From Stegostoma tigrinum (taxonomy: Eukaryota): DNA of 64,000 nt. A program made the translations under genes and the position numbers. The notes under the pieces were generated by a model. It was not told the origin of the DNA. It saw only the letters and a list, made by a program, of their open reading frames with translations, and did no database searches. The stretch spans positions 42,767,517-42,831,516 of the forward strand of contig NC_081357.1 of NCBI RefSeq assembly GCF_030684315.1, read 5' to 3'. Positions within the stretch are counted from its first letter, which is position 1, and each line of letters begins with the position of its first letter. This document shows positions 3,596 through 60,851 of the stretch, in pieces.

Positions 3596-4221
3596 CCATT
3601 CAGCCAAAATGGCTACTGAGTTACAAGAAACCCTTGCTGAATGAATTGGAATCATTATCCTGAAATACACTACTTGCTACCCACTGTAGACCAAAGTTAT
3701 AGAGCAAAGCATAATTAGAATTATTATCATTGTCAGAAAACTGTTTTGACTATTTTTCATGTAACTTCTGCCTTCTATTATATGACAGACCTTCCCATTT
3801 ATTCTTTACTGCCCTTCCCTTTTCTATGCTCGTTGAAGGCAGAGCAGCAAAGTAACTAAGTCTGAACTTTGTAAAGTTTTATGAATGGAGAACATCATTT
3901 CAAACGAATACATTTCACTGAGCACTGAAGCAAAAAACAGCCCTACTTTTAAAATAGTGTTTGTTCTTGGCTTATTCCTCATGTCCAGAACATGGTAAAC
4001 AACATTAGTGTAAGGCAAACTTTGTTTGAATCTTGACAGAAAACACAAGTCAATCAAGATTGGAACATCAACCAGCAACGCAAATGACGCATTTAACTTT
4101 CTACATAGATTGGTTAAATATGCATCCTGGTACATGATCATCTAAAACGCACTCTATAATGTGTTCCTTCAATACTGTGTTAAGTTCTAAATCAACAAGA
4201 AAAGCTGTGGGGATAATTCAG

Positions 4222-4410
4222 GGATAATGGGAACTGCAGATGCTGGAGAATCCAAGATAATAAAATGTGAGGCTGGATGACCACAGCAGGCCCAGCAGCA
4301 TCTCCCCATCCCCCTCTCTGATGAAGGGTCTAGGCCCGAAATGTCAGCTTTTGTGCTCCTGAGATGCTGCTGGGCCTGCTGTGTTCATCCAGTCTCACAT
4401 TTTATTATCT
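4222..4410. mobile_element. Palindromic PLE-end element (family A)
   Basis: Inverted arms; TSD GGGATAATTCAGGG at 4210-4223 and 4411-4424; hammerhead at 4318-4345(+). Confidence 0.9.
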
Positions 4411-4649: not shown

Positions 4650-7600
4650 AACAGGAATCAGAAGGAGGCTAGACACCGCAGGACTGAGGGTATGATACTT
4701 AAATTCATAAGTATACAAAACAAGGTAAAGATGGAAATTAGCAGGTATGTTGTTGTGGGTATCACAGATACGTGGCTGCAAGGGCTGGAAACCAAATATC
4801 CAAGGACTTGCATCCTATTGAAAGGATAGGCAGATGATCAGGAAGGGGGGACAGGGGTTGCCTTGTTAGTAAGAGAGGAAATTAAATCAATAGCAAGTGG
4901 TGAAATGGAGTCAGAAGGCATTGAATTTGTGGGATAATAAAGTGTGGAGCTATATGAACACAGCAGGCCAAGCAGCATCTTAGGAGCACGGAAGCTGACG
5001 TTTTGGGCCTAGACCCTTCATCAGAGAGGGGGATGGGGAGAGGGTACTGGGATAAATAGGGAGAGAGGGGGAGGCAGACCGACGATGGAGAGAAAAGAAG
5101 ATAGGTGGAGAGGAGAGTATAGGTGGGGAAGTAGGGAGGGGATAGGTCAGTCCAGGGAAGATGGACAGGTCAAGGAGGTGGGATGAGGTTAGTAGGTAGG
5201 AAATGGAGGTGCGGCTTGGGGTGGGAGGAAGGGATGGGTGAGATGAAGAACAGGTTAGGGAGGCAGAGACAGGCTGGGCTGGTTTTGGGATGCAGTGGGG
5301 GGAGGGGAAGAGCTGGGCTGGTTGTGTGGTGCAGTGGGGGGAGGGGATGAACTGGGCTGGTTTTGGGATGTGGTGGGGGAAGGGGAGATTGTGAAGTTGG
5401 TGAAGTCCACATTGATACCATTGGGCTGCAGGGTTCCCAAGCGGGAATATGAGTTGCTGTTCCTGCAACCTTCGGGTGGCATCATTGTGGCACTGCAGGA
5501 GGCCCATGATGGACATGTCATCTAAAGAATGGGAGGGGGATTGGAAATGGTTTGCGACTGGGAGGTGCAGTTGTTTATTGCAAACCGAGCGGAGGTGTTC
5601 TGCAAAGCAGTCCCCAAGCCTCCACTCGGTTTCCCCAATGTAGAGGAAGCCACACCGGGTACAAAGGATACAGTATACCACATTGGCAGATGTGCAGGTG
5701 AACCTCTGCTTAATATGGAAAGTCATCTTGGGGCCTGGGATAGGGGTGAGGGAGGAGGTGTGGGGGCAAGTGTAGCACTTCCTGCGGTTGCAGGGGAAGG
5801 TGCCGGGTGTGGTGGGGTTGGAGGGCAGTGTGGAGCGAACAAGGGAGTCACGGAGAGAGCGGTCTCTCCGGAAAGCAGACAAGGGTGGGGATGGAAAAAT
5901 GTCTTGGGTGGTGGGGTCGGATTGTAGATGGCGGAAGTGTCGGAGGATGATGCGTTGTATCCGGAGGTTGGTGGGGTGGTGTGTGAGAATGAGGGGGTTC
6001 CTCTTTGGGTGGTTGTGGCGGGGGTGGGGTGTGAGGGATGTGTTGCGGGAAATGCGGGAGACGCGGTCAAGGGCGTTCTCGATCACTGTGAGGGGAAAGT
6101 TGCGGTCCTTGAAGAACTTGGACATCTGGGATGTGCGGGAGTGGAATGTCTTATCGTGCGAGCAGATGCGGCGGAGGCGGAGGAATTGGGAATAGGGGAT
6201 GGAATTTATGCAGGAGGGTGGGTGGGAGGAGGTGTATTCTAAGTAGCTGTGGGAGTCGGTGGGCTTGAAATGGACATCAGTTACAAGCTGGTTGCCTGAG
6301 ATGGAGACTGAGGTCTAGGAAGGTGAGGGATGTGTTGGAGATGGCCCAGTTGAACTTGAGGTTGGGGTGGAAGGTGTTGGTGAAGTGGATGAACTGTTCG
6401 AGCTCCTCTGGGGAGCAAGAGGCGGCACCGATACAGTCATCAATGTAACGGAGGAAGAGGTGGGGTTTGGGACCCGTGTAGGTGCGGAAGAGGGACTGTT
6501 CCATGTAACCTACAAAGAGGCAGGCATAGCTGGGGCCCATGCGGGTGCCCATGGCCAACCACTTTGTCTGTAGGAAGTGGGAGGAATCGAAAGAGAAGTT
6601 GTTGAGGGTGAGGACGAGTTCGGCTAGGCGGATGAAGGAGTCAGTGGAGGGGGACTGGTCGGGCCTACAGGACAGGAAGAAGCGGAGGGCCTTGAGGCCA
6701 TCTGCATGCGGAATACAGGTGTATAGGGACTGGAAATGAGGTGTTGGGGGCCAGGGAGTTGGAAGTTCTGGAGGAGGTGGTGGGTGTGGGTGGTGTCACG
6801 GACGTAGGTAGGGAGTTCCTGGACCAAAGTGGAGAAAATGGAGTTCAGATAGGTGGAGATGAGTTCGGTGGGGCAGGAGCAGGCTGAGACAATGGGTCGA
6901 CCAGGGCAGGCAGGTTTGTGGATTTTGGGAAGGAGATAGAAATGGGCTGTGCGGGTTTGGGGAATAATAAGGTTGAAGGCTGTGGGTGGGAGGTCCGCTG
7001 AGGTGATGAGGTCATGAATGGTGTTGGAGATGATGGTTTGGTGCTCGGGGGTGGAGTCATGATCAAGGGGGCGGTAGGAGGAGGTGTTGGAGAGTTGGCG
7101 TTTGGCCTCGGCGATGTAGAGGTCAGTGCACCATACTACCACTGTGCCACCCTTGTCTGTGGGTTTGATGGTGAGGTTGGGGTTCCCCCACCGCATCCCA
7201 AAACCAGCCCAGTTCTTCCCCTCCACCCACTGCATCCCAAAACCAGCCCAGCCTGTCTCTGCCTCCCTAACCTGTTCTTCCTCTCACCCATCCCTTCCTC
7301 CCACCCCAAGCTGCACCTCCATTTCCTACCTACTAACCTCATCCCACCTCCTTGACCTGTCCATCTTCCCTGGACTGACCTATCCCCTCCCTACTTCCCC
7401 ACCTATACTCTCCTCTCCACCTATCTTCTTTTCTCTCCATCTTCGATCTGCCTCCCCCTCTCTCCCTATTTATTCCAGAACCCTCACTCCATCCCCCTCT
7501 CTGATGAAGGGTCTAGGCCCAAAACGTCAGCTTTTGTGCTCCTGAGATGCTGCTTGGCCTGCTGTATTCATCCAGCTTCACACTTTATTATCTTGGATTC

Positions 7601-8700
7601 TCCAGCATCTGCAGTTCCCATTATCTTTGATTGAATTTGTAGAGTAGAGTTGAAGAACTACAATGGAAAAAAGACTCTGATGGGAGTTATGTACGGACTT
7701 TCCAGCAGTAGTCAGGATGCGGTGCAGAAAATAAATGAGGAGATAAAAAGAAAGGCATATAGGAAAGACACTGTCACAATAATCATGGTGGGCTTCAATG
7801 GTGGACTGGGAAAATCAGGTTGGTAGCGGATCTCAAGAAAAGGAATTTGTTGAATGTTTACAAGATTATTTTTGGAACAGTTTGTGGTAGACCCCACTAG
7901 GAAAGCGGCAATTCTGGATTTGGTGATGTGTTATGAGACAGATTTGATTAAGGAGTTTAAAGTGAAAGAACCCCTCCCAGAGAGTGACCATAATATGATA
8001 AGAGTTCACCCTGCGGCTTGAGAGGGAGAAGCTGGAATCAGATGCAACAGTATGACAATTGAGTAAAGGTATCAACAAAGAAATGAGAAAGGAGCTGGCT
8101 AAAGTTGTTTGAAAGTAGACCCTAACATGGAAGAAGGTGGAGTGGCAATGGCAGGAATTTCTAGGGCAATTTAAGAGGCATAACAGAAATTCATCTGGAG
8201 GAAGAAGAAGCACACGAATGAATGAGGCAACCATGGTGGGCAGGGTAATTCAGAGCAGTATAAACGTGAAAGGAAGAGCAGGCAATGTAGTGAAGATTAG
8301 TGGGAAGTCAAAGGGCAGGGAAGCCTCTGAAAGCCTGCAGAGGGTAACTGAAAAAGCAATAAGATACAAGAAGATGAAATATGACAGCAAGCTAGCTAGG
8401 AATATAAAAGAAGATTGCAAGAGATTTTTTTAGATAACTGGTAAGGGAGAGGCAAGAATGGACATTGGACCACTGGAAAATGAGTCTGGTGAAGTAATAC
8501 TGGGAACAAAGAAATGACAGAGCAACTGAATAGGTACTTAGCATCAGTTTTCACAGTGGGAGACACCAGCAGCAAACCAGAATTTTATGTGAGCCAGGAT
8601 GAGGAGGTAAGTATAGTGGCCATCACGAAGGAGAAAGCATTCAGGAAGCTGAAAGGTCCGAAGGTGGATAAATTACCCAGACCAGATGGACTACCCCACC
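4650..8700 (+). mobile_element. Degenerate CR1 LINE (endonuclease/linker region) interrupted by the PLE at 4931-7629
   Basis: APE-like remnants (gcaattctggatttggtgatgtg, agtgaccataatatgat); the LKVDKSPGPDG-like segment resumes after the insertion. Confidence 0.8.
4931..7629 (-). mobile_element. Penelope-like retroelement (Neptune-like, family A): 5'-truncated RT plus GIY-YIG, with an inverted copy of its 3' end (7184-7629, +)
   Basis: IKPTDKGG, FYLLPKIHK..PGRPIVS, AMGTRMGPSYA, LRYIDD, Cys linker CNRRKCYTC, NVVYCI..LYIGET; 11-bp TSD ATTGAATTTGT at 4920-4930 and 7630-7640. Confidence 0.93.
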
Positions 8701-10654: not shown

Positions 10655-13385
10655 TTATGAGGTGAGGTTGAGTAAATTGGTCTTGTACTCACTGGAATTT
10701 AGAATAATCAGGAGAGACCTTATTGAAAGAAAGGAATTCTTTGGGGGCTTGACTGGGTAATTTGAGGTGAGAGAGGCCAGGACCAGGGGTATGATCTCAG
10801 TGTAAAAGGTCATATATTTAAGGCAAAAAATGAAGGGAAATTTCTTCTCTCATCGAGTAGTTAATTTATGGGATTCTTTATCACAGGGAGCAGTGGAGGC
10901 TGGATCATTAGGATGGTATCAAATTGAGAGAAAAATCGTAAAAACACGTTAAAGATTAGTAGTAAACCAGAAGATTGGAGATATTTTAAAAGCCAAAAAG
11001 ATAATCAAAAATATAATGGAGGGAGAAGATAAACTTCATTGGTAAACTGGCGAGTAATATGAAATGGATAGTTGAGAGCTTCCTTAAATATATCTATAAA
11101 GGAAAATAGAATGATTCTTTTAAGTTGGTGAGGCAATCAGGGATTATGGGGAAATAACAGGAATGTAGAATTGAGGATTGTTTGATCAGCCATGATCTCA
11201 TTGATCTTCTGCTCCTATATCTTATGGATTTATGGTCTTATGGCAGCCTGTAGTCGCTGCACTTGGATTCCAGAAGGCAATTAACAGGATTACAAATCAA
11301 AAGTTATTGTACAAAGTGGGATTCCATGGTGCTGCGATGAACATATTACCAAGGATAGAAAAGTGGCTGTCTGTCAAGAAAAGAGTGGACATGAATGGGT
11401 CTTTTTCTGCTGTGATGTGTGGAGTTCCATGAGAGCCTGCTGTGGGTTCTTAGTGATTCTGGTAAAGGAAGCGATATTTACAGACAGATAGGTGGAAATT
11501 TAAATTGTGAAGTCATGAGGAAGTTGCAGACGGTGATAAATAGGTTAAGTGAGTGATCATGCTCCCATGAGAAGCTTGAACAGATCACCAACTTCGCTAA
11601 CACCTTTCACCCCAACTTCGAAATTCACCTGGACCAGCTCCGATATCTCCCTCCCCTTCCTGGACCTCTCCGTCTCTTTCTTTGGTAACCATCTCAGCAC
11701 TGAGATCTATTTCAAACCCACCGACTCCCACAGCTAACTTGACCACACCTCTTCTCACCCACCATCCTGCAAGAATGCAATCCCTCACTCCCAATTCCTC
11801 CGCCTCCACCACATCTGCTTCCAAAATGGAACATTCCATACCCGGACATCCTAGATGTCCTCCTACTTCAAGGACCTCAACATGCCCTTTCTGTTGATTG
11901 AAAATGCCCTTAACCACAACTCTTGCATTTCCCACACTTTTGCCCTCAAACCTCCTCCCACCAACAAAAGTAAGGACAGAGTCCCAATCGTCCTCATGTA
12001 GCACCCCACCCACCTCTGCATATCACTCTCTACCACTTTCACCATCTACAATCCAATTCCACCACCAAAGAGATATTTGTCTCACCACCCCTGTCTGCCT
12101 TTCATTGGGACCACTCACTCCACAATTCCCTCATCCGCTCCACACTCCCCACTACCCCCGGTACCAATCTCTGCAACCAGAGGAAGTGCTCTTACATATC
12201 TGACTGAGGTTCACCTGAACATCCTCCAACCTGGTCTATTCTATCTGTTGCTCCCAAAATGGCATCCCCCACATCCATGAGAGCAAGTGTAGATTTGGTG
12301 ACTGATTCGTGGAGCTCCTGCTCTCTGTATGCTGTAATCAGCAACGCTTTCCAGTTGTGAACCACTTTAACACCTGCACCCATTCTCTGGGTGACATGTC
12401 CATCCTGGGCCTCCTCCAGTGCTATATTGACTCCACTCGCAACTGGAGGAACAACACCACCTCAGTAGCCTACAGCCCTATGACGTGAACATAGAATTCA
12501 CCAGTTTCAAAATCACCCCACCTCCGGCCTCATCTTACATCCAACTGTCCCTCTCATCCTCGCCTCCTTGACCTGACATAATCCATCTATCTTCTTCCCC
12601 ACCTATCCGCCCACTCTTCTCACTGACCAATCCCCACTACCGCCTACCTGCATCCATCTATCACTATCCTACCTACCGTCCCTAAGCCCCACCCGTTCTC
12701 CCTCTATTTCCCAACCCAATATGTTGACTCTCCTGCTCCTCTGATGCTGCCTGACCTGCTGTGTTCCTCCAGCTCCACACTGTATCAGCTGAGTAAACAT
12801 CTGAGAGGGAGTACAAGGTGGGAATATTTGAAATAGGTTACCTTGACACGAAGAATGAAAGAGCAGAATTAGTTAAATTAAGAACAATTACAGGTGTTTT
12901 CCAACACACACACCACAAAATGTTAGCGGGGACGATACCTGGAATGAGCAAATTATTTTAAGAGGAAAAGATGGACAGACAAGGCTCATTTCTACTGGAA
13001 TTTAGTAGTGAAGGGTGACTTGATTAAAGCGTATAAGGTCCTAAGTGGTCTTGACAAGCTGTGGAAAGGAGGTTTCTTCTCATGGAGTGGCATTGTTTCA
13101 AAATTAGATGTCACCCTTTGAGGACAGGGATGAGGGCAATTTTTCCGAGTTTGCACCATTTTGGAAATCTGACTCAAAAGGCATTGAGGGTGGGGTCATT
13201 GAATATTTTTAAGACCACAATATATAGCTCCTTGTTAGGCAATGGGATCAAAAGGTTATGGGTCGGTGGTAGGTCCTGGGGGTTGGGCAGATGGGAATTT
13301 TGAATTCAGGACATAAACGGATCAGCCGTGATCATATTGAATGGCAAAGCAGGCCACTCCTGCATCTAATTGGTATATTTGTAGG
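10655..13385 (+). mobile_element. Cluster of old CR1 fragments interrupted by the PLE at 11552-12790
   Basis: CR1 3' motifs (ttgtactcactggaatttagaa, gaccttattgaaa, gatcagccatgatc); GFQKA..KLLYKV RT remnant. Confidence 0.7.
11552..12790 (+). mobile_element. Degenerate Penelope-like element (RT C-terminus, GIY-YIG, 3' end)
   Basis: KFTWTSSDISLPFLDLSV..YFKPTDSHS; homologous to 4931-7183; ends gatgctgcctgacctgctgtgttcctccagctccacac. Confidence 0.85.
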
Positions 13386-14446
13386 AATATGGTAGAGGTT
13401 ATGGCTTTGGAAGTTGATGATTCAGGAAACTTAGTGAAATTCAAGCGGATCTCCTGTTTATGTACAAAGATTAGATAAATTTTAGCCAAGGCATTTGAAG
13501 AATTTGGCTTCTATTTTTCAAACAGTACTGTCTTATCTTTTACAGCAGCTACACTTCAGCAACAGATGGATTGAAGCCAAGGAAGAGGTTGTGGCCAAGG
13601 CAGAGAAGGGTGATATTATGAAAATTAAAATCCACCTGGAATTCCCTCCCTAATGGCATGGTGGATATACCTACAGCACATGGACTGTAGCAGTTCAAGA
13701 TCAAGAAGGCAGCTCATCACTAACTTCTGAAGGGCAACTAGGGATGAGTAATAATGGTAGCCCAGCCAATGACACCCAAGTCCAACCAGTGAATTTGGAA
13801 AAGTAGGCAGCTTGCGTGATATTATAAGTTTCAGACTGTTTTTTTTTCAGGGAAACTGTGTTAATACTTACTCTCACCTAAAATCATGCAATCACACTTT
13901 CTAGTAATGGCTACCACAAAGGGCTCAGGATTAGAAATATTGTTTATTTCCCACTTGCCTGCCTCACAGTGTTAGGACAGTGAACCCTTCTGGTTTCGGG
14001 GGCATTTAGAAGCATATCAGCTTTTGTCACACGTTAGAACATTCCCTTTTAAGTATAATTCAAGCACCAAGTTGTAATCAAGTACCTAAATGCTTAGAAT
14101 TTAATGTTAGTTATTCAGCTGGAACCGTGGCATTGACTTTGTCGTACACTTAAGTCAAATGCACTTAATGTTATGGTGTAATCAATAAAACACGTGCAGA
14201 ATGAAACACGTCTGCATTTTGAATCAGGTGCGTGACCTTGGAACTGCACTTTCTCTTCAATGCAATTGTGTTAGAATATTTACTGCATGTTAATAGATAA
14301 TATGTGCATTTCCAAACCAAAGAAAGTAAGTGTTGAAAAAATTGCTGAGGAATCCAGGGAAGGAAAGCGGGAAAAAAAACTTATGGAATGAAAGCTTGTA
14401 TAGCATCAAGAGGAATCTTAAAAGACCTGAAGGACATACACAATGA

Positions 14447-15210
14447 GGTTCACCTGCACATCTGCCAATGTGGTATACTGCATCCGCTGTACCCGGTGTG
14501 GCTTCCTCTACATTGGGGAAACCAAGCGGAGGCTTGGGGACCGCTTTGCAGAACACCTCCGCTCAGTTCGCAACAAACAACTGCACCTCCCAGTCGCAAA
14601 CCATTTCCACTCCCCCTCCCATTCTCTTGATGACATGTCCATCATGGGCCTCCTGCACTGCCACAATGATGCCACCCGAAGGTTGCAGGAACAGCAACTC
14701 ATATTCCGCCTGGGAACCCTGCAGCCATATGGTATCAATGTGGACTTCACCAGTTTCAAAATCTCCCCTTCCCCCACTGCATCCCTAAACCAGCCCAGTT
14801 CATCCCCTCCCCCCACTGCACCACACAACCAGCCCAGCTCTTCCCCCCCACCCACTGCATCCCAAAACCAGTCCAACCTGTCTCTGCCTACCTAACCGGT
14901 TCTTCCTCTCACCCATCCCTTCCTCCCACCCCAAGCCGCACCCCCAGCTACCTACTAACCTCATCCCACCTCCTTGACCTGTCCGTCTTCCCTGGACTGA
15001 CCTATCCCCTCCCTACCTCCCCACCCACACCTTCTCCACCTATCTTCTTTACTCTCCATCTTCGGTCCGCCTCCCCCTCTCTCCCTATTTATTCCAGTTC
15101 CCTCCCCCCATCCCCCTCTCTGATGAAGGGTCTAGGCCCGAAACGTCAGCTTTTGTGCTCCTGAGATGCTGCTTGGCCTGCTGTGTTCATCCAGCCTCAC
15201 ATTTTATTAT
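14447..15210 (+). mobile_element. Young 5'-truncated PLE (family A): GIY-YIG, 3'UTR and hammerhead
   Basis: ORF 14443-14895 NVVYCIRCTRCGFLYIGETKRRLGDRFAEH; 12-bp TSD CATACACAATGA at 14435-14446 and 15211-15222. Confidence 0.93.
15120..15147 (+). ncRNA. Minimal hammerhead ribozyme motif (intact core)
   Basis: CTGATGA AGGG TCTAGG CCC GAAA CGTC; GUC cleavage triplet. Confidence 0.8.
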
Positions 15211-15429
15211 CATACACAATGATCACTGGTTCCCAGAACAGAAACACATAAGACACAGTTGCACTGTACAATTCACAATTAAGTGTTCAACAAACACATC
15301 TTAAAGACATTGGATGAAGGCTCATCAATCTAAAACGTTAATTCAGTTTCTCTTCTTGCAAGCTGGCTGAGAACTTTTAGCATTTTCTGTTTTTATTTTA
15401 GATCTCCACAAGCTTTTTTAAAAATTCAT

Positions 15430-15975
15430 TCATTAATGTGAGCATTAGTGAGCAGTAGGGCCAGCATTTATTGCCCAGAGTGTAGTTAAGAGTCAACGAC
15501 ATTGCTGTGGATCCGGAGTCACACGTAGACCAGGCCAGGTAAGGACAGCAGTTTCCTTCCTTAGAGAGCATTGGTGAGCCAGATGGGTTTTTACACCCAA
15601 ACATTGATAACAGTTTTACAGTCATCATTCGACTCTTAACTCCAGATTTCACAGAATTCAGTTTCCACTATCTGCTATTTCCATGGTGGAATTCAATCCC
15701 AGATACCCTGAACTATTAAAAACCAGAAGAACTGTAGAAGCTATAAATCAGGAACAAAAACAAAGTTGCCAGAAAAGCTCAGCAGGTCTGGCAGCATCTG
15801 TGAAGGGAAAAACAGAGTTAATGTTTTGGGTCTGGTTCTGAGGAAGGGTCATCGGACCCGAAACATTTAACTCTGTCTTTTTCCTTCACTGCTGCCAGAT
15901 CTGCTGAGCTTTTCCAGCAACTGGGTCTCTGTATTAATAGTTTCATGATAATATCACTAGGCCATCACCTCCTTA
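15430..15975 (-). mobile_element. tRNA-like SINE (second family) with a nested family-B PLE palindrome
   Basis: Homologous to 17850-18170, 56310-56640 and 63760-63945 (ccatctggttcactaatgtccttt..ggaaa domain). Confidence 0.6.
15720..15922. mobile_element. Palindromic PLE-end element (family B)
   Basis: Inverted arms aaaagctcagcaggtctggcagc / gctgccagatctgctgagctttt; CTGAGGAAGGGTCATCGGACCCGAAAC hammerhead-like core. Confidence 0.8.
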
Positions 15976-16112
15976 ATGCAATATTTTATTCTGTATCACA
16001 GCAAAAATGTCTTCAGCCAATTCTATCTACCCACATGATACACAGTATCAGCTGAGTGCACCAGGTCTTGTAAAGGCTATGGGCTGTGTTCATTGGGTGC
16101 CCATTCTTTTTG

Positions 16113-16950
16113 AATATGCTATTTCAACGAGCCACCACACACTGCAGCACAGAGGAACAACGAAGAGCAGAAGAAAATCACCTATACAGCGTATTCAAAA
16201 AGAACGGGTACCCAATGAACACAGTCCGCCGATTTCTCAGCAACAAACCCAAACAAACAGACAAAACGAGCTCAGAAACCATAACCACTCTCCCCTACAT
16301 CAAGGACATTTCCGAAATAACTGCCAGACTACTCAGACCTCTTGGCATCATTCTAGCCCACAAACCCACCAACACACTAAAACCGCAGCTAATGAACTTA
16401 AAAGACCCTATACAGACAACAAGCAAAACAAATGTCATTTACAAAATACCTTGCAAGAACTGTGACAAACACTACATTGGACAAGCAGGCAGAAAGCTAG
16501 CCACCAGGATACATGAACATCAACTAGCCACAAAACGACATGACCCACTATCACTAGTATCCTTACATACAGATGAGGAAGGACACCACTTTGATTGGGA
16601 CAACACATCCATCCTAGGACAAGCCAAACAGAGACATGCACGAGAATTCCTAGAAGCATGGCATTCCAACTGGAACTCCGTCAACAAACACATCGATTTG
16701 GAGCCCATCTACCATCCTCTGAGAAAAAGAACAGGAAATGACATCACCAATGCAGGAAATGACATTACCAACCTGAGGAAACCTAAACAGAAACAGAAAG
16801 CGGGACATAACACCAGCGCTTCACCGGAGGCTCACTGATGATGTTACCTAGAATGGTGATGAAACGTCTGAAAACTAACCTTCCAGCTCAGCGAGCAAAC
16901 TTACATCCAGAACCTCAACCTGAGCTACAAATCTTCTCAAAACTCACTGA
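16113..16950 (+). mobile_element. Penelope/Poseidon-type PLE (family C): RT thumb, GIY-YIG and 3' end
   Basis: ORF 16086-16838: VFKKNGYP, TLPYIKDISE, NVIYKIPCKNCDKHYIGQ..RIHEH, REFLEAWH; no Cys-rich linker. Confidence 0.92.
16835..16868 (+). ncRNA. Minimal hammerhead ribozyme motif (family C)
   Basis: tca-CTGATGA-T-GTTACC-TAGAAT-GGTGAT-GAAA-CGTC-tga. Confidence 0.75.
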
Positions 16951-19849: not shown

Positions 19850-19946
19850 TTTTCTGAAAGAGGGTCCAGACCTGAAATGTCAGCTTTCCTGCTCCTTTGA
19901 TGCTGCTTGGCTGCTGTGCTCATCCAGCTCTACGCCTTGCTATCTC
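19850..19946 (+). mobile_element. Single-arm PLE 3'-end insertion (family A, older)
   Basis: ctgaaagagggtccagacctgaaatgtcagc...; TSD TCTCAACAAAG at 19837-19847 and 19943-19953. Confidence 0.75.
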
Positions 19947-21004
19947 AACAAAGGTGACTTTTTTCGGCACTATTCAAAATATAGTGGCTGGTCTTCCCAC
20001 AAACTTTTCACATTGTCTCAATCTGTGTCCTTTGTTACAATAGGCAAGCGAGATCAGCTAACTTACTGAAGCCCTTAAGCTCTTGGCCAATTCATTTCAA
20101 TTCTAAATGCAGCAGGGAAAAGCTGAAGCATGGGTCAGGGTAGCACAACTTTAACTGCGCAGAAAATAGGACTCCACTTCGAGAGACTCCATTGTGCCCT
20201 TTGGAGGTATGCCATCACCCAAGATCATAGCAACCTCACCCCCCTCCCAACCCACGCAGCACCCAAACCACCTCCAAACCCAGCACAGTTATTAGGGACT
20301 GCCAGCTATGTCTGTCCAAAATTTCAGACTTAGCGTTAAGTCTAGGGTCCTTCAGGGACTGCACGTGTTGTCGGCAGTGACCATTTTTCAAACCTGCCAC
20401 AGCTAGCATGGGTGTCCAACACACTTGGCCAATAGATTATGGAGCACGGTGACATCAGAGTGGGTTGACTTGAGGGAATATTTGCTGCTGAAACTTTAAG
20501 AGAAGGGGTATTTGGCTCTGCTCCTTTCAGAACAGCTGGCCAGGAAGAGTGCATAAAGAAATACTACACAATATAAGAATCAAAGCAAGAAATTATGGAG
20601 CAATGAGTGCCCCAGCAGGAGATGATGTGCAGTGTAACAGCTTGGTGTTGGAAAATCCAGGACAGTTGATACCTTGGCATTAGTATCAATATGATTCAAT
20701 TAAAGCTGCTCCTAGTATGATTTTGCTGTGTAACAGTTAAGGCTTGTGTGTCAGGGCAGCTGACAGGCTTTACGATTAGGGAGCAGGGAATATAACATCT
20801 CACAAAGTCCAGGCCATCGTTTGTGCAAATGTGGATCAAAGTAGACAGATGTACAGAAAAATTTAATGTAACTATTATAAAAGCACAAAGGCATTGCCTC
20901 AAAGATAAGTGCATAAAATTGAGGAAGGAAGGGCTGGAGGTAGAATGAGGCCAACTATTTGTAAAATTAGGATAGAAATGATGGAATGTGTGCTTTTATC
21001 GAGT

Positions 21005-23772: not shown

Positions 23773-23864
23773 ACAGGGTCACCGGGCCCAAAATGTTAAT
23801 TCTGTTTTCTCCTTCATAGATGCTGCTAGACCTGCTGAGCTTTTCCAGCAAATTTGTTTTTGTT
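23773..23864 (+). mobile_element. Single-arm PLE 3'-end insertion (family B)
   Basis: 11-bp TSD AGTATTCCATT at 23762-23772 and 23865-23875. Confidence 0.8.
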
Positions 23865-23994: not shown

Positions 23995-25090
23995 ATAAAA
24001 ACCGAAATAACTTTTTCCTCAACCAAGGAATCCCCAGCTCCATTGTCGACAGGGCCCTCACTCGGGTCTGACCCATCTCCTGCACTTCTGCCCTCACCCC
24101 TTCTCTTCCCTCCCACAAAAGTGATAAGGTTCCCCTTGTCCTCACCTACCATCCCACCAGCATCCACATCCAGAAGATCATCAGACGCCACTTCCACCCC
24201 TCTAGCAAGATGCCACCACCAGACACATATTCCCCTCCCCTCCCTTGTCCGCCTTCCACAGGGACCATTCCCTCCGAGGCATCCTGGTCCACACTTCCTT
24301 CACCCCCAACACCTCCCCACAGCCCTGTAACCGGTGAAGGTGCACAACCTACCCATTTACCTCCTCCCTCCGCACTATCCAAGGACCCAAATATACCTTC
24401 CAGGTGAAGCAACACTTCACCTGTATTTCCCAGAATCTAGTCGACTGCATTCGCTGCTCACAATGTGGTCTCCTCTTCACTGGGGGAAAAGAAGTGTAGA
24501 CTTGGCGACTGCTTTGCAGAGCATTTGTGCTCTGCTCACAAAAAAGACACTGAAATACGTGTTGCCTGCCACTTCAACTCACAACCCTGCTCTCTGATCA
24601 ACATCTCTGTCTCTGCCTTGCTGCAGTGTTTCATTGAAGCCCACCACAAGCTGGAGGAACAACACCTCATTTTCCACTTGGGGACCCTACAGCCCTCTGG
24701 ACTCAATATTGAGTTCAATAATTTTAGGGCCTAAACTCTCCCATGTCCCAGCCCCCCACCACACACACTAAACCTTGTTACCGCATGGCCTGCCACTGCA
24801 CACTCCCTGTTGTTAGTCACTAACATCCCCATTAACAACTATTCACCCTCCCAGCCTGATTATTAGCAACTCCTTTGTCTGTCCAACTGACTTTCTCTCT
24901 CTTTGGGCTCTATCCTATCGTTTACTCCCTACTCCACCCACCTCCCTACTTTCTGCATATAAACAGATGTTTTCCCAGCCACCATCAGTTCTGAGGAAGG
25001 GTCACTGGACCCAAAACGTTACCTCTGTTTTCTCCTCCACAGATACTGCCAGACTTGCTGAACTTTTCCAGCAACTTTGTTTTTGTTCCA
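23995..25090 (+). mobile_element. 5'-truncated PLE (family B): GIY-YIG, 3'UTR and decayed hammerhead
   Basis: RLGDCFAEHL..VACHFN..KLEEQHLIFHLGTLQPSGLNIEF; CTGAGGAAGGGTCACTGGACCCAAAACGTT at 24991; TSD TGTTTAAAYGGTGA at 23981 and 25091. Confidence 0.88.
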
Positions 25091-25989
25091 TGTTTAAATG
25101 GTGAGTCCAGTTAAGTTACTAGTTAATGGTAACCCCAAGGATTATGATAATGGGGGGTTTGGTGATGATAACACTATTGAAAGTCAAGGAGACAATGGTA
25201 AGATTATCCCTTATTGGAGATGGTCATTGTCTGGTATTTGTGTGGCGTGAATGTCATTTGCCACTTGTCAGCCCAAGCCTGGACATTGTCCAGACCTTGT
25301 TGCATTTGAGCTTCTTCCATTGTTATAAGTATGACACCCACCAATGGACAGTTTTCCCCCAATTCCCACTGACTTCAGTTTCGCTCGGGTTCCTTGGTGT
25401 CACCCTCGGTCGTAAGCTACCTTGATGTCTTGGGCAGTCTGTCTTAATCATCTCTGGAATTCAATTCCTTTGTCCGTGTTTGAACCAAGGCCAGAATGAA
25501 GTCTGGAGCTGAATGGGCTTTGGTGAAACTCAAACTCCGAGTGCCAGTGAGAAAGTCACTGCTGAGCAAGTGAAACTTGACAACACTGTCATTCATCCCT
25601 TCGATCACTTTGCTGAGAATCTTATGTCTAATATTTTAGAACAGGGCAAACCTGGGCAATTTTTTGCACTATTGGATATGTACTGCTTGGCCAGAGGTAT
25701 GGCCAGTTCTGAAACATTAATCTTCAATGCTAGCACCAGAATGTTTTAGGTCCCATTGTCTTGGTTGTTTCCTATGCCTTTAGCTATTTCTTGCTTTCAT
25801 GTGGGTAAATTGAAGACTGGCATCTGTAATGTTGAGGACCTCACAAAGAGGCCAAGATGAATTATCCACGACCTGAGCATTGAGGATTGATATATTTGTG
25901 GATCATTTTGCATTTGTTAATTGTTTAATTGTCCTCCACCATTCATAGGTATCTATGAAAGAATGACAGAACTTAGATCTGATCGATCT

Positions 25990-26420
25990 TTTGAGGAAGT
26001 AATGAGCAAGTACAGGGAAAGGAGAGCTGTCGATGTGATCTATTTGGATTTCCAAGCCTTTCACAAAATGCTGCACAGGAAGCTGCGAAATAATATAAGA
26101 GCCCATGGTGTTAGAGGCAAGTTACTGGCACAGAGAGAAGATTGGCTGATTGGCAGAAGATCAAAATTGGGGATAAAGGGGTCTTTTTCAGGATGGCAGC
26201 TGATAACTAGTAGAGTTCCGCAAGGGTCAGTGTTGGGACCACAACTATTCAAGTTATACATTAACGTTCTAGATGAAGGAACTAAGTGCATAGTCATTAA
26301 GTTCACAGATGACACAACGATAAGTGGAAGGACAGATAATGTTGTGGAACTGGGGAGGCTGCAGAAAGACTTCAACATGCTAGGAGAGTGGGTGAAGAAG
26401 TAGCAGATGGAATACAATGA
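25990..26420 (+). mobile_element. CR1 RT fragment
   Basis: VDVIYLDFQAF, VPQGSVLGPQLFKLYIN, KFTDDT. Confidence 0.9.
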
Positions 26421-27934: not shown

Positions 27935-28118
27935 ATAACAAGGTGTAGAGCTGGATGAACACAGCAGGCCAAGCAGCATCAGAGGAGCAGGAAGGCTGAC
28001 GTTTCGGGCCTAGACCCTAGCCTTCCTGCTCCTCTGATGCTGCTTGGCCTGCTGTGTTCATCCAGCGCTGCACCTTGTTATCTCAGATTTTCCAGCATCT
28101 GCAGTTCCTACTATCTCT
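27935..28118. mobile_element. Palindromic PLE-end element (family A variant)
   Basis: Inverted arms; imperfect TSD TGTCTCYTATT at 27920 and 28118. Confidence 0.85.
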
Positions 28119-29881
28119 GTCTCTTATTATGATTGTTTATCCTGCATTCATTACAACTCTCCTTTCGTCCGCAAGTTCAAGGTCAGCCTGTCAGTGACTA
28201 ATAGTGGATGCCCCAGCTGAATGAGTTGAACGAGACTGAAGTTTGTGGGTCAGCCAGCAGAGATGTGATGGGCTGAACATTACATGCCCCCAACTGTGTG
28301 TGAGGAGTATGTAATGGGTGGATGGGTCACTAACCCATGGCCACCCCATCAGCCCTAAACAAAGCTCAGCAGCATAATGCAGTGTGTGGGAGGCGCTGAA
28401 ACTGGCAGCCCATAAACCGTATGGAAATCAATAGTTAAGGGTCAATTCAGCTAGTCTAGACCATAAAATAGATGAGAACGGCGGGGGTGTAAGATTGGGA
28501 TCCTGGTTTTAAAATGCGGAAAAAGCAACAGGTACAAAAGAGGCTACTATCTTGAGGCAATAGGTGCCACCAGTCCGTCTATGGCTGGCATTGGGACTAC
28601 GAGAAGTGCCCGGGTCAGTGAGGGTTCTGTATCTCACAGAAGCAAAGGTAGTGAGGTCTGGTGGGAAAGAGTAGGGAGGGATGGGTGTGGAGTATTACCG
28701 AGAGATACGTAAGATGTAGTAGAGAGCAGCCAGGGGGAATAGACTTTGGTTGGGGTTTGGGGGTTTGGGTTGTGCATCTGATGTGGAATGGTAGATATCA
28801 TGAGAAGTTGTCCAAGCCACTCCCTCCTTCCCAGCTGAGGTCTGAGCTATCTGACCTTTGAGGCATTCACCCCTGCCCCTGAAATCCTACTTGGTGTGAG
28901 GCTCTGTTTTCTTAACGGAATGATACCAATTACACAGCAGCGCACTGGTAAACCAAATCTAGGTTCAGTTTTTTTGAGGACTTCAAGCTGATATACTATA
29001 AAAGGGCACTTGTGACTGTCACACCAAAGCATGCCTGCAACTGCCGCAAACTATGTGATGCAAGCTGGACTGTGCAACGGTGGCAGATCATATGCTCTAG
29101 GCTGTCATTATATGCTCATTAGCATGGTGCCTCTTAATCACATCACCCTCCAGCCACAAAACCAAGGCAAGGTGACCCTTAAGTGGCTAACGATTAGTCC
29201 TTGCCCAAAAAGGTGGCCACTTATGGGCTTCAATCGTGAACAGGTTGCGTGCAGTGGAAGGGAAGCAGGAATGCCACCCAGGAACCTTATGGGCCACCCC
29301 ATCTGCAAACCCACCAACATGGTGTTGTGAAATTCTTCCCAAGGATAGTTACAGTGATTTTCTGCTTCCAGAAAGAAAGGTTCACATTTTGGGAGTAAAA
29401 CTGGAGCCCCAAACCATGTTCTCTGAGCAGCTTATTATTGGATGCACTGGAAATTGGATTTACTCCTTAATGTATTGAAATGTAGGCTTGGTTTGAATCA
29501 ATGCACTTTAATTTGTGCAGACAACTCACAAACCCCTGACAAAAGTCAGTCTAATACAAAAGGATTAATCAGCTCACAGTCTTTCATGTCACATAACAGC
29601 CATTTAACAATTACTAAAGGTGTTAAGCAGTGCCTATTTCATTTCAACCACTTAATAGTATATTTTAAAGCTGGAATTGAATCTTAATATAATTCTGGTT
29701 TCTTTTTTTTATTTTGCCATAGTTCATCTTGAAGCTGCTTCAGGATCTGAAGGTAATTATTTTTTATAAATATTTCAGAATGTCTCACTCCTAAGAGAAT
29801 GGAGATTTCACAGTTATACTCGTGCATGAGATATCTAACTCCTCCAAGCTAATCCTTCAATCTAATCTTCCAAATTCACTA

Positions 29882-30109
29882 GAGATAATGGGAGCTGCAG
29901 ATGCTGGAGAATTCCAAGATAATAAAATGTGAGGCTGGATGAACACAGCAGGCCAAGCAGCATCTCAGGAGCACAAAAGCTGACGTTTCGGGCCTAGACC
30001 CTTCATCAGAGAGGGTCTCTCTGATGAAGGGTCTAGGCCTGAAACGTCAGCTTTTGTGCTCCTGAGATGCTGCTTGGCCTGCTGTGTTCATCCAGCCTCA
30101 CATTTTATT
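29882..30109. mobile_element. Near-perfect palindromic PLE-end element with a hammerhead motif on each strand
   Basis: 17-bp TSD ATCTTCCAAATTCACTA at 29865-29881 and 30110-30126; hammerheads at 29982-30009(-) and 30021-30048(+). Confidence 0.93.
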
Positions 30110-30197
30110 ATCTTCCAAATTCACTATTTTGTTTTCCATGCTCACCATATTTTATCTAAATGCATGCATTGTTAACTAAATAACATACAGCAGCTAT

Positions 30198-30370
30198 CAG
30201 AGATAATGGGAACTGCAGATGCTGGAGAATCCAAGATAATAAAGTGTGAAGCTGGATGAACACAGCAGGCCAAGCAGCATCTCAGGAGCACAAAAGCTTG
30301 AAGCTGGATGTTGTGCTCCTGAGATGCTGCTTGGCCTGCTGTGTTCATCCAGCTTCAGATTTTGTTATCT
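30198..30370. mobile_element. Palindromic PLE-end element lacking the hammerhead
   Basis: 12-bp TSD TACAGCAGCTAT at 30186-30197 and 30371-30382. Confidence 0.9.
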
Positions 30371-31989
30371 TACAGCAGCTATTCCTGCCTCTTTGAAATG
30401 CAGAAAATGTCATTGATCAGCTAATGGGAAAAAATAGTTGGAGGAAAGGACTTTTATGTCGCACCATTTTTTGGGGCATCAGAAAATCATATAAGTCTGA
30501 AAACCATTTCGTCCTTTTGCTTATGTTGGCTCTTTGTAAAAAGTGATCTTGCACTCCTCTGCATACTTATTTCCCCAGTGATCTATGTAAGGAGACTAAC
30601 TACAACATTATCTTCGTGAAGCCACATTGACATTGCTTGATCAAATTTAGGTTTTCTTAATGCTTTGCTAAAAATCTCTTCTTATCTCAATAGGCTAAAG
30701 GTCCTTTTTCCGTATTATAGACCTCTATGCCTCTATGATAGCCTCTAGTATTTTCCAATTGACAGATGTTTAACTAACTAGCCTATTTTCTTGTCACCTT
30801 TCCTTTTTGAATGAAGGTGTTTCATAGAAAAACATTAAATTAAATGGCACCAATACAGACATTTAGCTAATAATTGAGATAAGTGCACTTAGTTTATCCT
30901 TGTAAAGACAGCAGGCCCAGGCACCGCCAGGCAGCTCAGTGCACCTAAAGATTGATTTCAGAAATCTATCGTATCCTTAATGAGTAATCATACAATTCCC
31001 TAATAGCCTGAACAAACACTGTGCATTGTCAGCATTTATCAGAATTTTAATAAGTATGATGCAGTGAGGTAGCAAGTCTGTAATGAGATGATAAGGTGCT
31101 GCCGTTGCCATATTACTGAAGAACTATAGAACATACCCACACCCATGCGCACAACAACATACAACGTGCCAGAAGGTTTTTTAAAAGGTACTTTTCTATC
31201 CTTGATGTGGGAATTTCTGGCGTCCCTAATTGCCCTTGAGGCTTTGGTGAGTTTCCTTGGAAATCCACGTAGTTTAGGGACACCCATTGTGCTCTTAGGA
31301 AAGGCATGTTCCAGGGTTTGGACGCAGCAGCAATGAAACAATGGAGATGTACTCCCCAGTCAGGATGGACTGTAGCCTTGAGGGGAACTAGCAACTGCTT
31401 TCTTTCTTGTGTTCATCCATTCCCAGTCTACTTGTCCTCTTTTCCAAATCATCTTTGTTATTTAATTTCTCCCACCCTTGATCTTCTCCCAAACTTCCAT
31501 TTTGTTCTTCCTCGTCCCCTTCCATAAACTGTAACTTCTACTTTCTTTCGATTCTGAAGAGTCATAACCAACATAAAACCTGATCACAGTTCCATTATTT
31601 TCAGACGTTGCCAGACCTGTTCGGGATTTTCAGAACTTTCTGGATTTTTTTTTTCCTATTTTATGCTCCCAGCATCCACAGAATTTTGTTTTAACATAAA
31701 TGCCTCAGCCAGAAAATAGGAGCAGAATCTTACAGAAGACCGATTAAATGTGGGCTATTGTGAAAACATGTGGCAGAATCAAATGAGATGTCTGGCGAGG
31801 CCCAGATAAATGATGGGAGCATTTCACTGTGTCTTTTATGTTGCTGTTTTAGTGGTGTAGTGAGCTTTTTATTAGTTGTGCCTTGGTAATTAAGGGGAAT
31901 TATTACTTGTTACACATCTTGTTGGCAGCTCAATTCACCCTATTAATGTTCAGATTCCTATTTTTCTGAACGCACAAAGCAAGCTAGAA

Positions 31990-33821: not shown

Positions 33822-36534
33822 TGTAATGATTGGAACAAGGTTAGCCTGGTGGATCTCATTGAGTATGAGTTCCTTGATTGGGGCTGGTAACCTGGGCCAA
33901 TCAGGGAGCCCTGGCTGACAGATAAGAATGGGCATCTCAGAGATTCCACTGACTCTAGGGACTGGCTCATCAGAGGCATGTGTAGAACATAGAACATAGA
34001 AAAGTACAGCACAGTACAGACCCTTTGGCCCACAATGTTGTGCCGTGGAATAATCCTAATCCAAAAATAAAATAATCTAACCTACATTCCCCTCAATTCA
34101 CTGCTGTCCATGTGCATGTCCAGCAGTCGCTTAAATGTCATTAATGAGTCCGCTTCCACGACTACCACGGGTAAACTATTCCATGCGCTCACAACTCTCT
34201 GGGTGAAGAACCTCCCTCTGACGTCTCCTCTATACCTTCCTCCTAACACCTTAAAACTATGACCCCTCGTGGCAGTCAATCCAGCCCTGGGGAAAAGTCT
34301 TTGGCTATCGACTCTATCCGTGCCTCTCATTACCTTGTACACCTCGATAAGGTCACCTATCTTCCTCCTTCTCTCCAGAGAGAAAAGTCCGAGCTCAGTC
34401 AACCTCTGCTCGTAAGACAAGCCCTCCAGTCCAGGCAACATCCTGGTAAACCTCCTTTGCACCCTCTCCAAAGCCTCCACATCTTTCCTATAATAAGGCG
34501 ACCAGAACTGGGCACAATATTCCAAGTGTGGCCTCGCCAGGGTTTTGTAAAGCTGCAGCATAACCTCGCGGCTCTTAAACTTGATCCCCCTCTTAATAAA
34601 AGCCAAAAAACCATATGCTTTCTTAACAACCTTATCCACCTGGGTGGCAACTTTGAGGGAGCTATGCACTTGCATACCAAAATCCCGCTGTTCCTCCACA
34701 CTGCCGAGAATCCTGCCTTTAATCCTATATTCAGCATTTAAGTTTGACCTTCCAAAATGCATCACTTCACATTTATCCAGGTTGAACTCCATCTGCCATT
34801 TCTCAGCCCAGCTTTGCATTCTGTCAATGTCTCGCTGAAGCCTGCAATAGTCCTCGATACTATCAACAGCACCTCCAACTTTTGTGTCATCAGCAAACAT
34901 ACTAACCCACCCCTCAACCTCCTTATCCAAGTCATTTATAAAAGCTACAAGGAGAAAAGGCCCAAGAACAGAGCCCTGCAGGACACCACTCAGCACTGAC
35001 CTCCAGGCAGAATACTTACCATCTACAACCACTCTCTGCCTCCTGTCAGCCAACCAATTCTGAATCCAGGCAGCCAAATCACCTTGTATCCCGTACCTCC
35101 TGACTTTATGAATGAGTCTGCCGTGGGGAACCTTATCAAATGCCTTGCTGAAGTCCATGTACACCACATCCAATGCTCCACCCTCGTCAACCTGTCTCAT
35201 GACTTCCTCAAAGAACTCAATAAGATTTGTAAGGCATGACCTGCCCCTCGCAAAGCCATGCTGACTCCCTTTAATCACGCTATACTTTTCCAAATAGTCA
35301 TAAATCCTATTCATCAGAATTCTTTCCAAAACCTTGTTGACTACAGACGTAAGACTGACTGGTCTGTAATTTCCAGGGATTTCCCTATTCCCTTTCTTGA
35401 AAAGAGGAACAACATTTGCCTCCCTCCAATCCTCCAGTACGACTCCCGTGGAGAGTGAGGAAGCAAAGATCTTCGCCAGCGGCTTAGCAACCTCCTTTCT
35501 CGCTTCCCGGAGCAATCTGGTCTAGCCCTGGGGACTAATCAATCTTAATGTTTTCCAAAATTTCCAGCACATCAACTTCCTCAATCTTGATCTGTTCAAG
35601 CCTGTTTCCCTGCTCCTCAAAGCTCTCATTCACAACAAGGTCCCTTTCCTTCGTGAAAACCGAAGGAAAAAACTCATTTAGGGCTTCCCCTATCTGCTCA
35701 GACTTCACGCACAAGTTCCCTACGCTATCCCTGATCGGCCCTACCTTCTCCCTGATCATTCTCTTATTCCTCGCGTATGAGTAAAATGCCTTCAGGTTCT
35801 CCCTAATCCTTCCTGCCAACCCTTTATCGTGCCCCGTCCTGGCCCTCCTCAGTCCACTTTTGAGCTCCTTCTGAGCAAGCCTGTAATCCTCTAAAGCTGT
35901 GCTAGACCCTTGCTTCCTCCACCTTACGTACGCTGCCTTTTTCTTTTTGACAAGCAGAACCTCAGTACCCGTCATCTAAGGTTCTTTAATCTTACCCCTT
36001 CTTACCTGTCTCAGAGGAACAAATTTATACATCACTCGCAACAACTGCTCCCTAAACAGCCTCCACATGCCTGCTGTGCCCTTTCTGTGGAACAATTGCT
36101 CCCAACCTGTACTTCCCAACTCCTGCCTGATAGCGTCATAGTTTCCTTTTCCCCAGTTAAATATCTTCCCCTGGTAACTGCTCCTTTCCCTTTTCATGGC
36201 TATGGTAAATGTGAGGCTGTTGTGGTCACTGTCGCCAAAGTGTTCTCCCACCACGAGATCTGACGCCTGTCCTGGCTCATTGCCGAGCACCAAATCCAAA
36301 ATGGCCTCTCCCCTCGTCGGCCTGTCCACATACTGAGTAAGGAAACCGTCCTGAACACACCTGACAAAAACGCCTCCATCCAAACCATCTGCACTAAGTA
36401 GGTTCCAATCAATATTGGGAAAGTTGAAGTCACCCATAACAACAGCCCCGCTACGTTTGAACTTTTCGACAATGTGTACATGTAAATAAATGGTGACTTG
36501 GTGATGGGATATCAGCCTCTGTGGAGTTATTTCA
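33822..36534 (+). mobile_element. Possible solo LTR (33822-33984 plus 36479-36534) split by the CR1 insertion
   Basis: TG...CA ends; CCAAT, TATA-like GATAAGAA and AATAAA in LTR order once the CR1 is removed. Confidence 0.4.
33985..36471 (-). mobile_element. Young 5'-truncated HER1/CR1 LINE with an intact 477-aa RT ORF (34082-35515)
   Basis: GDFNFPNIDW, SDHN, NYRPVSLTS, SQHGF, DFSKAFDKVPH, QGSVLGP, FADD; (ttctatg)n tail; TSD ATGTGTA at 33978-33984 and 36472-36478. Confidence 0.95.
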
Positions 36535-36626
36535 CTTCTAGCTTCCTCAAAATCAAGAAATTTAAGTGACTTTCAAATCTTAGTTCTTTCATAGTGGAGA
36601 ACAGAACACATGCTTTATCCAGGACA

Positions 36627-36804
36627 GAGATAATGGGAACTGCAGATGCTGGAGATTCCAAGATAATAAAATGTGAGGCTGGATGAACACAGCAGGCCAA
36701 GCAGCATCTCAGGAGCACAAAAGCTGACGTTTCGGGCCTAGACCCTTCATGAAGGGTCTAGGCCCGAAATGTCAGCTTTTGTGCTCCTGAGATGCTGCTT
36801 GGCC
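36627..36804. mobile_element. Palindromic PLE-end element (family A)
   Basis: Centre CCCTTCATGAAGGG; 16-bp TSD TGCTTTATCCAGGACA at 36611-36626 and 36805-36820. Confidence 0.92.
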
Positions 36805-37974
36805 TGCTTTATCCAGGACACCCTATGCATTGATTGAAATGATATAATACTATTGCATTCAGCTTTACTTTTAAACAGAAATTTCAGATTTACAGAAGCC
36901 ATGAATACAGTTATTACTTATAAACATCCAACAGTTGAGTAACTGTTGAAAGAGATCTTTCCCTGTGAACTAGTAGCATTCATGCTGATACTTGTAAGTG
37001 CATTTTTAACTATGCCCAGCCCTGCTATAAAATCACAATGTCAGAACAATGCTTCTGCTGTCAATTTAATGAAAGGAATTAAATAATGAAAACTCAGATG
37101 ATGACATGAATTCCAATGTCTGCTTGGTTCCTGACAAACTCAAGTTCCGTGCCATACATTTTAAGAAACTGTGGTCCAATAATTCAAGTCAGCAAATTGA
37201 AAGGACAATTAGAATCAGTGCAGAAATAGACAGTTCTAGGATATCAGTAGACATTCAGCTGGAACTGCCTCCAGCGCCAGCAAAGGTATAATGGCCTTCA
37301 TCACCCTGGCAAGGAGAATGCAAGGCCAGATCCCGGTGATAGGACTCTGGGTATTCAACCTCCAGCAAACACACCAGCCAAGGAGCCTGAGCACTGGTCA
37401 TATTTCAAAAGAGGGGAGCAATGTATGCCCCAGGTAATTACTGAACTCTTTGCAAGTTTCAGAGTCCGGATGCAGCTAAGGACCTGGTGGAAGTGATTCA
37501 TGCAATGCTCTAAGACAACAAGCCTATGGAATTGGCCCTACAGACCAGCTATGCCTTATCTCCCATTTGTCTTTTCAGACAAGAGGACCAATAACTCCCA
37601 AGAATTGGCACTTCCTGCTATGGAGATTGTAGCCATGGAGATTGCCAGAGTAACACCTAGAAGCCACTCAGTTAATGTGAGATGGACATCCCCCGTGGAG
37701 AGGGTGAAAATATATTACAATCTGAAAAAATAATCCACAAGGGACTGCAGTATTCTCCTCCCACAAGTGCACCAACAGCTGACCTGCATTGTGAAGCCTC
37801 TGCATTACCAAAGCCTCTGCTCAAAATCTGCGACTTTGCCTTTCCCACAAGTTTGGATGAGGATTGAGAAGACTGTGTCTGATTCTACCACTGTTTTCCA
37901 AGTGCTCTGTTATACAATCCCTGATAAAGGACTCTGGCATCCATCCAACCCCTGGTGTAAACTTCCCTGTTTTC

Positions 37975-56401: not shown

Positions 56402-56609
56402 CAGAGATAATGAGAACTGCAGATGCTGGAGAATCCAAGATAACAAGGTGTAGAGCTGGATGAACACAGCAGGCCAAGCAGCATCTTAGAAGGAGGAAAG
56501 CTGACATTTTGGGCCTAGACCCTTCATCTATACCCGAAATGTCAGCTTTCCTGCTCCTAAGATGCTGCTTAGTCTGCTATGTTCATCCAGCTCCACACCT
56601 TGTTATCTT
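56402..56609. mobile_element. Palindromic PLE-end element (older family A variant) inside a SINE head (56310-56640)
   Basis: Inverted arms gataacaaggtgtagagctgg / ccagctccacaccttgttatc. Confidence 0.82.
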
Positions 56610-60589: not shown

Positions 60590-60851
60590 GAGAGATAATG
60601 GGAACTGCAGATGCTGGAGAATTCCAAGATAATAAAATGTGAGGCTGGATGAACACAGCAGGCCAAGCAGCATCTCAGGAGCACAAAAGCTGACGTTTCG
60701 GGCCTAGACCCTTCATCAGAGAGGGGGATGGGGAGAACCCTCACCCCATCCCCCTCTCTGATGAAGGGTCTAGGCCTGAAACGTCGGCTTTTGTGCTCCT
60801 GAGATGCTGCTTGGCCTGCTGTGTTCATCCAGCTCCACACTTTGTTATCTT
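60590..60851. mobile_element. Palindromic PLE-end element with hammerheads on both strands and non-identical arms
   Basis: 17-bp TSD ACATTATAAGAGAGGAT at 60573-60589 and 60852-60868; hammerheads at 60692-60719(-) and 60758-60785(+). Confidence 0.93.

Follow-up and report, generated by a model that had tools for sequence, protein, structure and literature searches.

Pairing of short and tailed arms in palindromic insertions of a Penelope-like element of Stegostoma tigrinum

It is still an open question how the tandem and inverted insertions of Penelope-like elements (PLEs) arise (PMC8557442). The locus studied here, positions 14447-15211 (+) of a window of 64,000 nucleotides from the 3.2-Gb genome of Stegostoma tigrinum (contig NC_081357.1, positions 42,767,517 to 42,831,516), raises this question in a specific form. 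It is a 5'-truncated, single-arm PLE copy of family A that comprises the GIY-YIG end and the pLTR, is bounded by a 12-bp TSD (14435-14446 and 15211-15222) and stops at a short end. An initial annotation had proposed that single-arm insertions generally stop in this manner and that an extra tail of ~35 nt appears only on the second, inverted arm of palindromic insertions. Does the end of an insertion indeed depend on whether it is solitary or paired, and what do the two types of end imply for the integration process?

A Pfam search detected a GIY-YIG domain above the cut-off at window positions 14431-14892 (E 5e-05), and the reading frames of a long palindrome in the window, referred to below as the 4931 element, contain a CxxC that is flanked by the VY and YIG motifs and followed by two His residues, pointing to the C-terminal GIY-YIG endonuclease with a CCHH motif that characterizes EN+ PLEs. 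In both the 4931 element and locus L189, the motifs DKG and YIDD (recognized by eye) occur in frameshifted RT frames, accompanied by the CCHH residues and a C-X4-C-X2-C linker, the latter located in window frame 4980-6314 and in L189. The Pfam match of the RT to RVT_1 was weak (E 0.022, below the cut-off), and all copies examined were frameshifted. A CX2-5CxxC linker between RT and EN defines the Neptune and Nematis clades (PMC8557442), whose described layout of RT, Cys linker and CCHH residues is that of the 4931 element and L189, so that the linker seen here would place the element with them. Our label 'Neptune-type' is a putative assignment based on this linker and on the report of Neptune from fishes (PMC4209133). 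In addition, the insertions display the hallmarks of EN+ PLEs, namely pLTR partial tandems (L189 and L202), inverted 5'-truncated copies, TSDs of variable length (10-17 bp) and a tail of ~36 nt, in the range of the 30-40 bp expected. The GIY-YIG match, linker, TSDs and tail thus bear out the original identification as a Penelope-like element.

Self-comparison and curation of the window, with the C of the short-end TTATC (window 7592 and 15211) as position 0, confirmed most of the local pattern initially described. Apart from the copy at 14447-15211, the single-arm insertions comprise a family-A copy (19853-19947, +; 11-bp TSD with a 5-nt overlap) and two copies of family B (23775-23864, +; 11-bp TSD; and a longer one at 23995-25089, +; 14-bp TSD with one mismatch), and all four stop short and are bounded by a TSD. 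Similarly, the 4931 element has the predicted arrangement, with an ORF-bearing arm (4933-7150, -; frameshifted RT and GIY-YIG with the motifs DKG, YIDD, CX4CxxC and CxxC-YIG) that ends short at 4933 and an inverted arm (7183-7626, +) whose tail spans 7593-7626, flanked by an 11-bp TSD (4920-4930 and 7630-7640). Among the mini palindromes, those at 2316-2506 (15-bp TSD) and 27935-28119 (11-bp TSD candidate with one mismatch) have a short left and a tailed right arm, whereas the left arm is tailed and the right arm short at 4219-4410 (14-bp TSD), 29882-30114 (17-bp TSD), 30195-30372 (12-bp TSD), 56402-56609 (no TSD found) and 60592-60851 (17-bp TSD). In the palindrome at 42569-42712 (10-bp TSD), the tailed arm consists of only the tail and 10 nt. 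Exactly one tail was present in all nine family-A palindromes of the window with both ends scoreable. The palindrome at 36625-36808 (16-bp TSD) combines a tailed left arm with a right arm that stops at -22, which corresponds to neither standard end, and in a family-B palindrome (15722-15922; no TSD found), the left arm is tailed and the right end decayed. Of the two overlaps between short ends and TSDs that had been noted, ATCTT near 30110 is real and comprises 5 nt; the overlap of TGCT near 36805 is also real but lies at -25..-22, reflecting a deeper truncation rather than a short end.

The window contains several other retroelement remnants. An open frame of 254 aa at 16074-16838 (+) resembles, by eye, a GIY-YIG terminus from another PLE, one of the Poseidon type that lacks the Cys linker, and had no Pfam match at 0.001. 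An older copy related to family A, with an ORF that is ~67% identical, is found at 11557-12785 (+), and fragments resembling ORF2 of CR1-type LINEs by eye, including one open RT frame of 479 aa, are located at 34082-36572 (-), 825-1451 and 25921-26403.

We then turned to 104 evenly spread 10-kb stretches of the genome (1.04 Mb, including 15,625 N) and a replicate set of 10 further 10-kb stretches, giving a total of 114. The ends of family-A arms were bimodally distributed, with a short class at -3..+5 and a tailed class at +33..+38. Among 123 family-A events away from the locus edges in the first set, there were 41 palindromes with one tail, two more that proved to be one-tailed on the basis of their TSD, one short/short and no tail/tail palindrome, as well as 34 short and 30 tailed solos; six complex events, four with one unscoreable arm and five solos with intermediate ends were excluded from these counts. 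Chance TSDs were absent from a swapped-flank control (0/348). Exactly one tail was thus found in 43/44 palindromes of the first set and in all four clear ones of the replicate set, in which one more with a damaged tail was left uncounted. The pooled value of 47/48, with no case of two tails (P = 1.7e-13 against an expectation of 0.5), upholds the claim of one tailed arm per palindrome and shows that this pairing occurs far beyond chance. When a TSD was required, 24/25 palindromes of the first set were one-tailed, the sole TSD-bounded palindrome with two short ends being L132:1395-1565 (16-bp TSD). Moreover, a set of 30 loci chosen for their short end included 12 with a TSD-bounded inverted arm, which was tailed in every case, and all eight long ORF palindromes with a TSD combined one short with one tailed arm. 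Two long loci that look short/short (L166 and L189) lack a TSD. A seemingly tail/tail pair at L183, whose members are 614 bp apart and share no TSD, was treated as two insertions. Family-B copies in the random loci are old (70-91% identity) and comprise ten one-tail palindromes, no two-tailed one and one apparently short/short case with, by eye, a decayed tail, next to 11 tailed (one TSD-bounded) and 34 short solos, a ratio that is unusable because several of the short solos have decayed tails.

The part of the proposed rule that concerns solos did not hold. Among all pooled family-A solos, 30/72 appeared to be tailed (95% interval 30-54%), as were 11/29 of those with at least 90% identity, 6/14 of the TSD-bounded ones in the first set and 10/22 of the long ORF solos, with tailed fractions of 38-45% across groupings. 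Tailed solos with clean TSDs include L049, L060, L067, L072:3787, L099:7517 and L117:307 as well as the long copies L171, L187, L193 and L194. Many tailed solos are exactly what the initial annotation had named as an observation incompatible with its rule. When the upstream 400 bp of each apparent solo were searched for hidden inverted arms, a single split palindrome emerged, L082, composed of a short and a tailed arm within a 10-bp TSD, which shifts the count from 30/72 to 29/70. The pattern in the window is within small-sample chance because, with 55-60% of solos being short, four out of four would be short with a probability of 0.09-0.13. Nor is the tail confined to the inverted arm, as had been claimed: among 39 loci with the RT region, 17 had a tailed and 18 a short ORF arm, with four being unscorable (17/35 tailed), and the TSD-bounded palindromes include five with a tailed ORF arm and a short inverted arm (L170, L185, L186, L196 and L198) and three with the reverse arrangement (L165, L174 and L191).

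It is extremely unlikely on this evidence that, as initially suggested, the first strand starts internally by pairing with the target and the second arm at the true 3' end of the RNA. The short ends of the four window solos and of the ORF-bearing arm in the 4931 element are in line with that model, and so are the replicate set, in which all eight solos were short and none tailed, and the lengths of the arms, since the short-ended arm extends further upstream in 25 out of 52 palindromes and the tailed one in 14, with 13 being equal (P = 0.11). Against it stand the TSD-bounded tailed solos, both the 6/14 at random loci and the four long ones, the tailed ORF arms, and the junctions described below, where the tail runs into the body and microhomology is equal at both ends. 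These counts leave room for a mild bias towards longer short-ended arms or short solos; cases in which the tailed arm trails by ~35 nt did not significantly outnumber their counterparts (12 vs. 5, P = 0.14). As a whole, one half of the proposed rule is refuted, and the other describes a feature already known.

The position of the tail within the element bears on where synthesis starts. In L189 and L202, which are tandem copies, the tail is followed without a break by 117 nt, the same in both, that lead into the ORF region. A search with this 117-nt body returned 30 loci (two of them representing one insertion and one being L189), and in 29 of them, the body is immediately preceded by the tail or by its 3' portion. 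This set includes many short tandem units, 11 of which form one-tail palindromes as judged by BLAST ends. The tail is thus internal, and its end is not the end of the RNA in tandem copies, contrary to the idea that it marks the true 3' end, whereas an internal start ~35 nt inside the tail end is supported. Both end classes lie just past a TTATCT-like motif, and their overlap with the target is similar, with means of 2.21 nt for short (n=29) and 2.59 nt for tail ends (n=27; difference P = 0.65), compared with 0.87 and 0.77 nt, respectively, in simulations. Overlaps of at least 3 nt were seen at 11/29 short and 11/27 tail ends, as opposed to 8.5% and 6.7% in the simulations, which are approximate; an endonuclease preference for sites resembling the ends would yield the same signal. 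Extra bases instead of an overlap occurred at 21/77 ends. Short microhomology with the target was therefore correctly recognized at the outset, in that it exceeds simulation at both ends, but it is not special to the short start.

The same data argue against a single start at the tail end followed by endonuclease trimming during resolution of the intermediate, a scenario put forward for canonical EN+ PLEs of the Neptune/Nematis type, whose tail is ascribed to endonuclease resolution in PMC8557442. A requirement of the fly endonuclease for the tail in recognition (as cited in PMC11167929) would fit with it. However, microhomology is alike at both ends, and two RT starts bracketing the tail have been mapped directly in vitro (PMC11167929), so that we consider trimming highly unlikely.

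Two further aspects of the junctions and tandem copies deserve mention. The right ends of L189 and L199 carry a similar non-tail stretch of 11-13 nt after the short end. L206-L231 (e.g. L212:1408-1832, in element orientation) contain tandem units of ~330 nt with the order pLTR, tail, ~117 nt of body and pLTR, which look like non-autonomous, retrozyme-like derivatives (cf. bioRxiv 10.64898/2026.07.22.740005).

Are the two arms of a palindrome copied from one template or from two? In 19 young palindromes, the arms differed at 5/138 non-CpG diagnostic comparisons (3.6%), as opposed to 650/2457 between elements (26.5%), at sites picked by eye. In addition, among the 12 youngest palindromes, seven have arms whose stops are no more than 25 nt apart on the template (permutation mean 1.2, P = 1.5e-05); older long palindromes showed no matched arm stops. 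The arms of the otherwise young palindrome at window 60592-60851 are discordant at 4/14 subfamily-diagnostic sites, which suggests two templates, with two pLTRs of a chimeric tandem as another possible source. Such discordance would be accounted for if a dimer primed at both nicks with each subunit using its own RNA and an asymmetry of the complex assigned one start to each, which would also yield one end of each type. The sharing of alleles could then stem from one dominant master locus, but together with the matched truncations at 250-700 nt, it fits one template better, making separate RNAs quite unlikely.

Allele sharing and matched lengths are predicted equally by fold-back copying or gene conversion. 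In the fold-back scenario, a cDNA initiated at the tail end folds onto itself and serves as its own template, and the copy stops ~35 nt early to join the second nick, in keeping with the self-priming proposed for such palindromes (PMC3846280). A copy of this kind cannot extend beyond its template upstream, yet it is the short-ended arm that extends further in 25/52 palindromes and in 9/12 of the youngest, short-selected ones, and short-ended solos share the same end site and microhomology. Later deletions at palindrome centers could rescue the model; even so, we regard it as unlikely.

Our data establish two classes of ends that occur once each per palindrome, are associated neither with arm length nor with solitary or paired status, show equal microhomology with the target and flank a tail that is internal. 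The reading that we consider probable is that a staggered cut provides two nicks that both serve as primers for reverse transcription of the same RNA, each at one of two internal starts ~35 nt apart. A protein dimer would cut both strands 10-17 bp apart, and each 3'-OH would pair by 1-5 nt with a tandem or circular RNA, immediately beyond one of its two TTATCT motifs. The two cDNAs may often halt at the same point of the template and then join head to head, whereas abortion of one cDNA would leave the other as a solo, short or tailed at near-equal odds. Against this reading stand the short/short palindrome L132, the short/short-looking loci L166 and L189, the discordant arms at 60592 and the lack of tailed solos among the eight of the replicate set; moreover, the trailing polymerase would need to displace the leading cDNA. 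In twin priming of L1, both target strands likewise prime on one RNA to generate an inverted junction, with the second primer annealing at variable sites and the two parts lacking overlap. Unlike in L1, both starts are fixed here, and the arms copy the same region. It is an evenly balanced proposition whether PLE integration is more generally an obligate twin priming on one RNA in which each of two fixed internal starts ~35 nt apart is served by one subunit of a dimer, regardless of which arm is long. If so, a single mechanism would account for the tail being one-sided, for the mirror arm and for solos being divided almost 50:50.

The gain over previous work is a modest quantitative refinement, not a new system, because a tail at one end and two internal starts have already been published (PMC8557442, PMC3846280, PMC11167929). 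The relevant parts of PMC8557442 give no counts and do not state which arm is tailed or how solos end, and those of the study on Adineta vaga Penelope elements (PMC3846280) deal with few copies, whose palindromes are explained by self-priming on an antisense template. Our literature search found no paper that counts one-short/one-tailed pairing or the end types of solos. The closest parallel is PAc, the Poseidon PLE of the lizard Anolis carolinensis, which belongs to a clade other than that of the Neptune-type element; its protein, a predicted dimer, cuts and extends both strands, two internal RT starts bracket its tail as they would here, and this tail lies at the pLTR-to-body junction, matching the internal tail of our copies (PMC11167929). 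Its predicted dimer, its action on both strands and its two starts speak for the priming at both nicks proposed here. Against this stands that, as described there, PAc shows no difference in start sites between the strands and that no homology between start and target is reported, whereas the ends analyzed here overlap the target by 2-3 nt on average; the main text does not mention that the two starts are coupled in individual insertions (PMC11167929). A strict pairing of one short with one tailed arm, combined with free arm assignment, represents a sharp constraint that is testable in the existing lizard in vitro system.

A separate feature concerns the 5' ends of the copies. Core boxes resembling a hammerhead were recognized by eye in the pLTR at -91..-64; an Rfam search of the window matched no family, hammerhead ribozyme included, and the predicted fold of the end region as a monomer was no better than that of shuffled sequences (z 0.29). 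A 5'-truncation peak at the predicted ribozyme cut (-63) was not seen (2/146). Instead, 48/146 short arms of family A, TSD-bounded solos included, stop at a hot spot at -92..-97 just upstream of the hammerhead-like core (e.g. window 2415 and 30017; L072:3787 and L080:9012). Candidate explanations for this hot spot are the 5' end of the RNA or an RT stop, and in the fly element, an intron is described to end at the matching place (PMC4209133).
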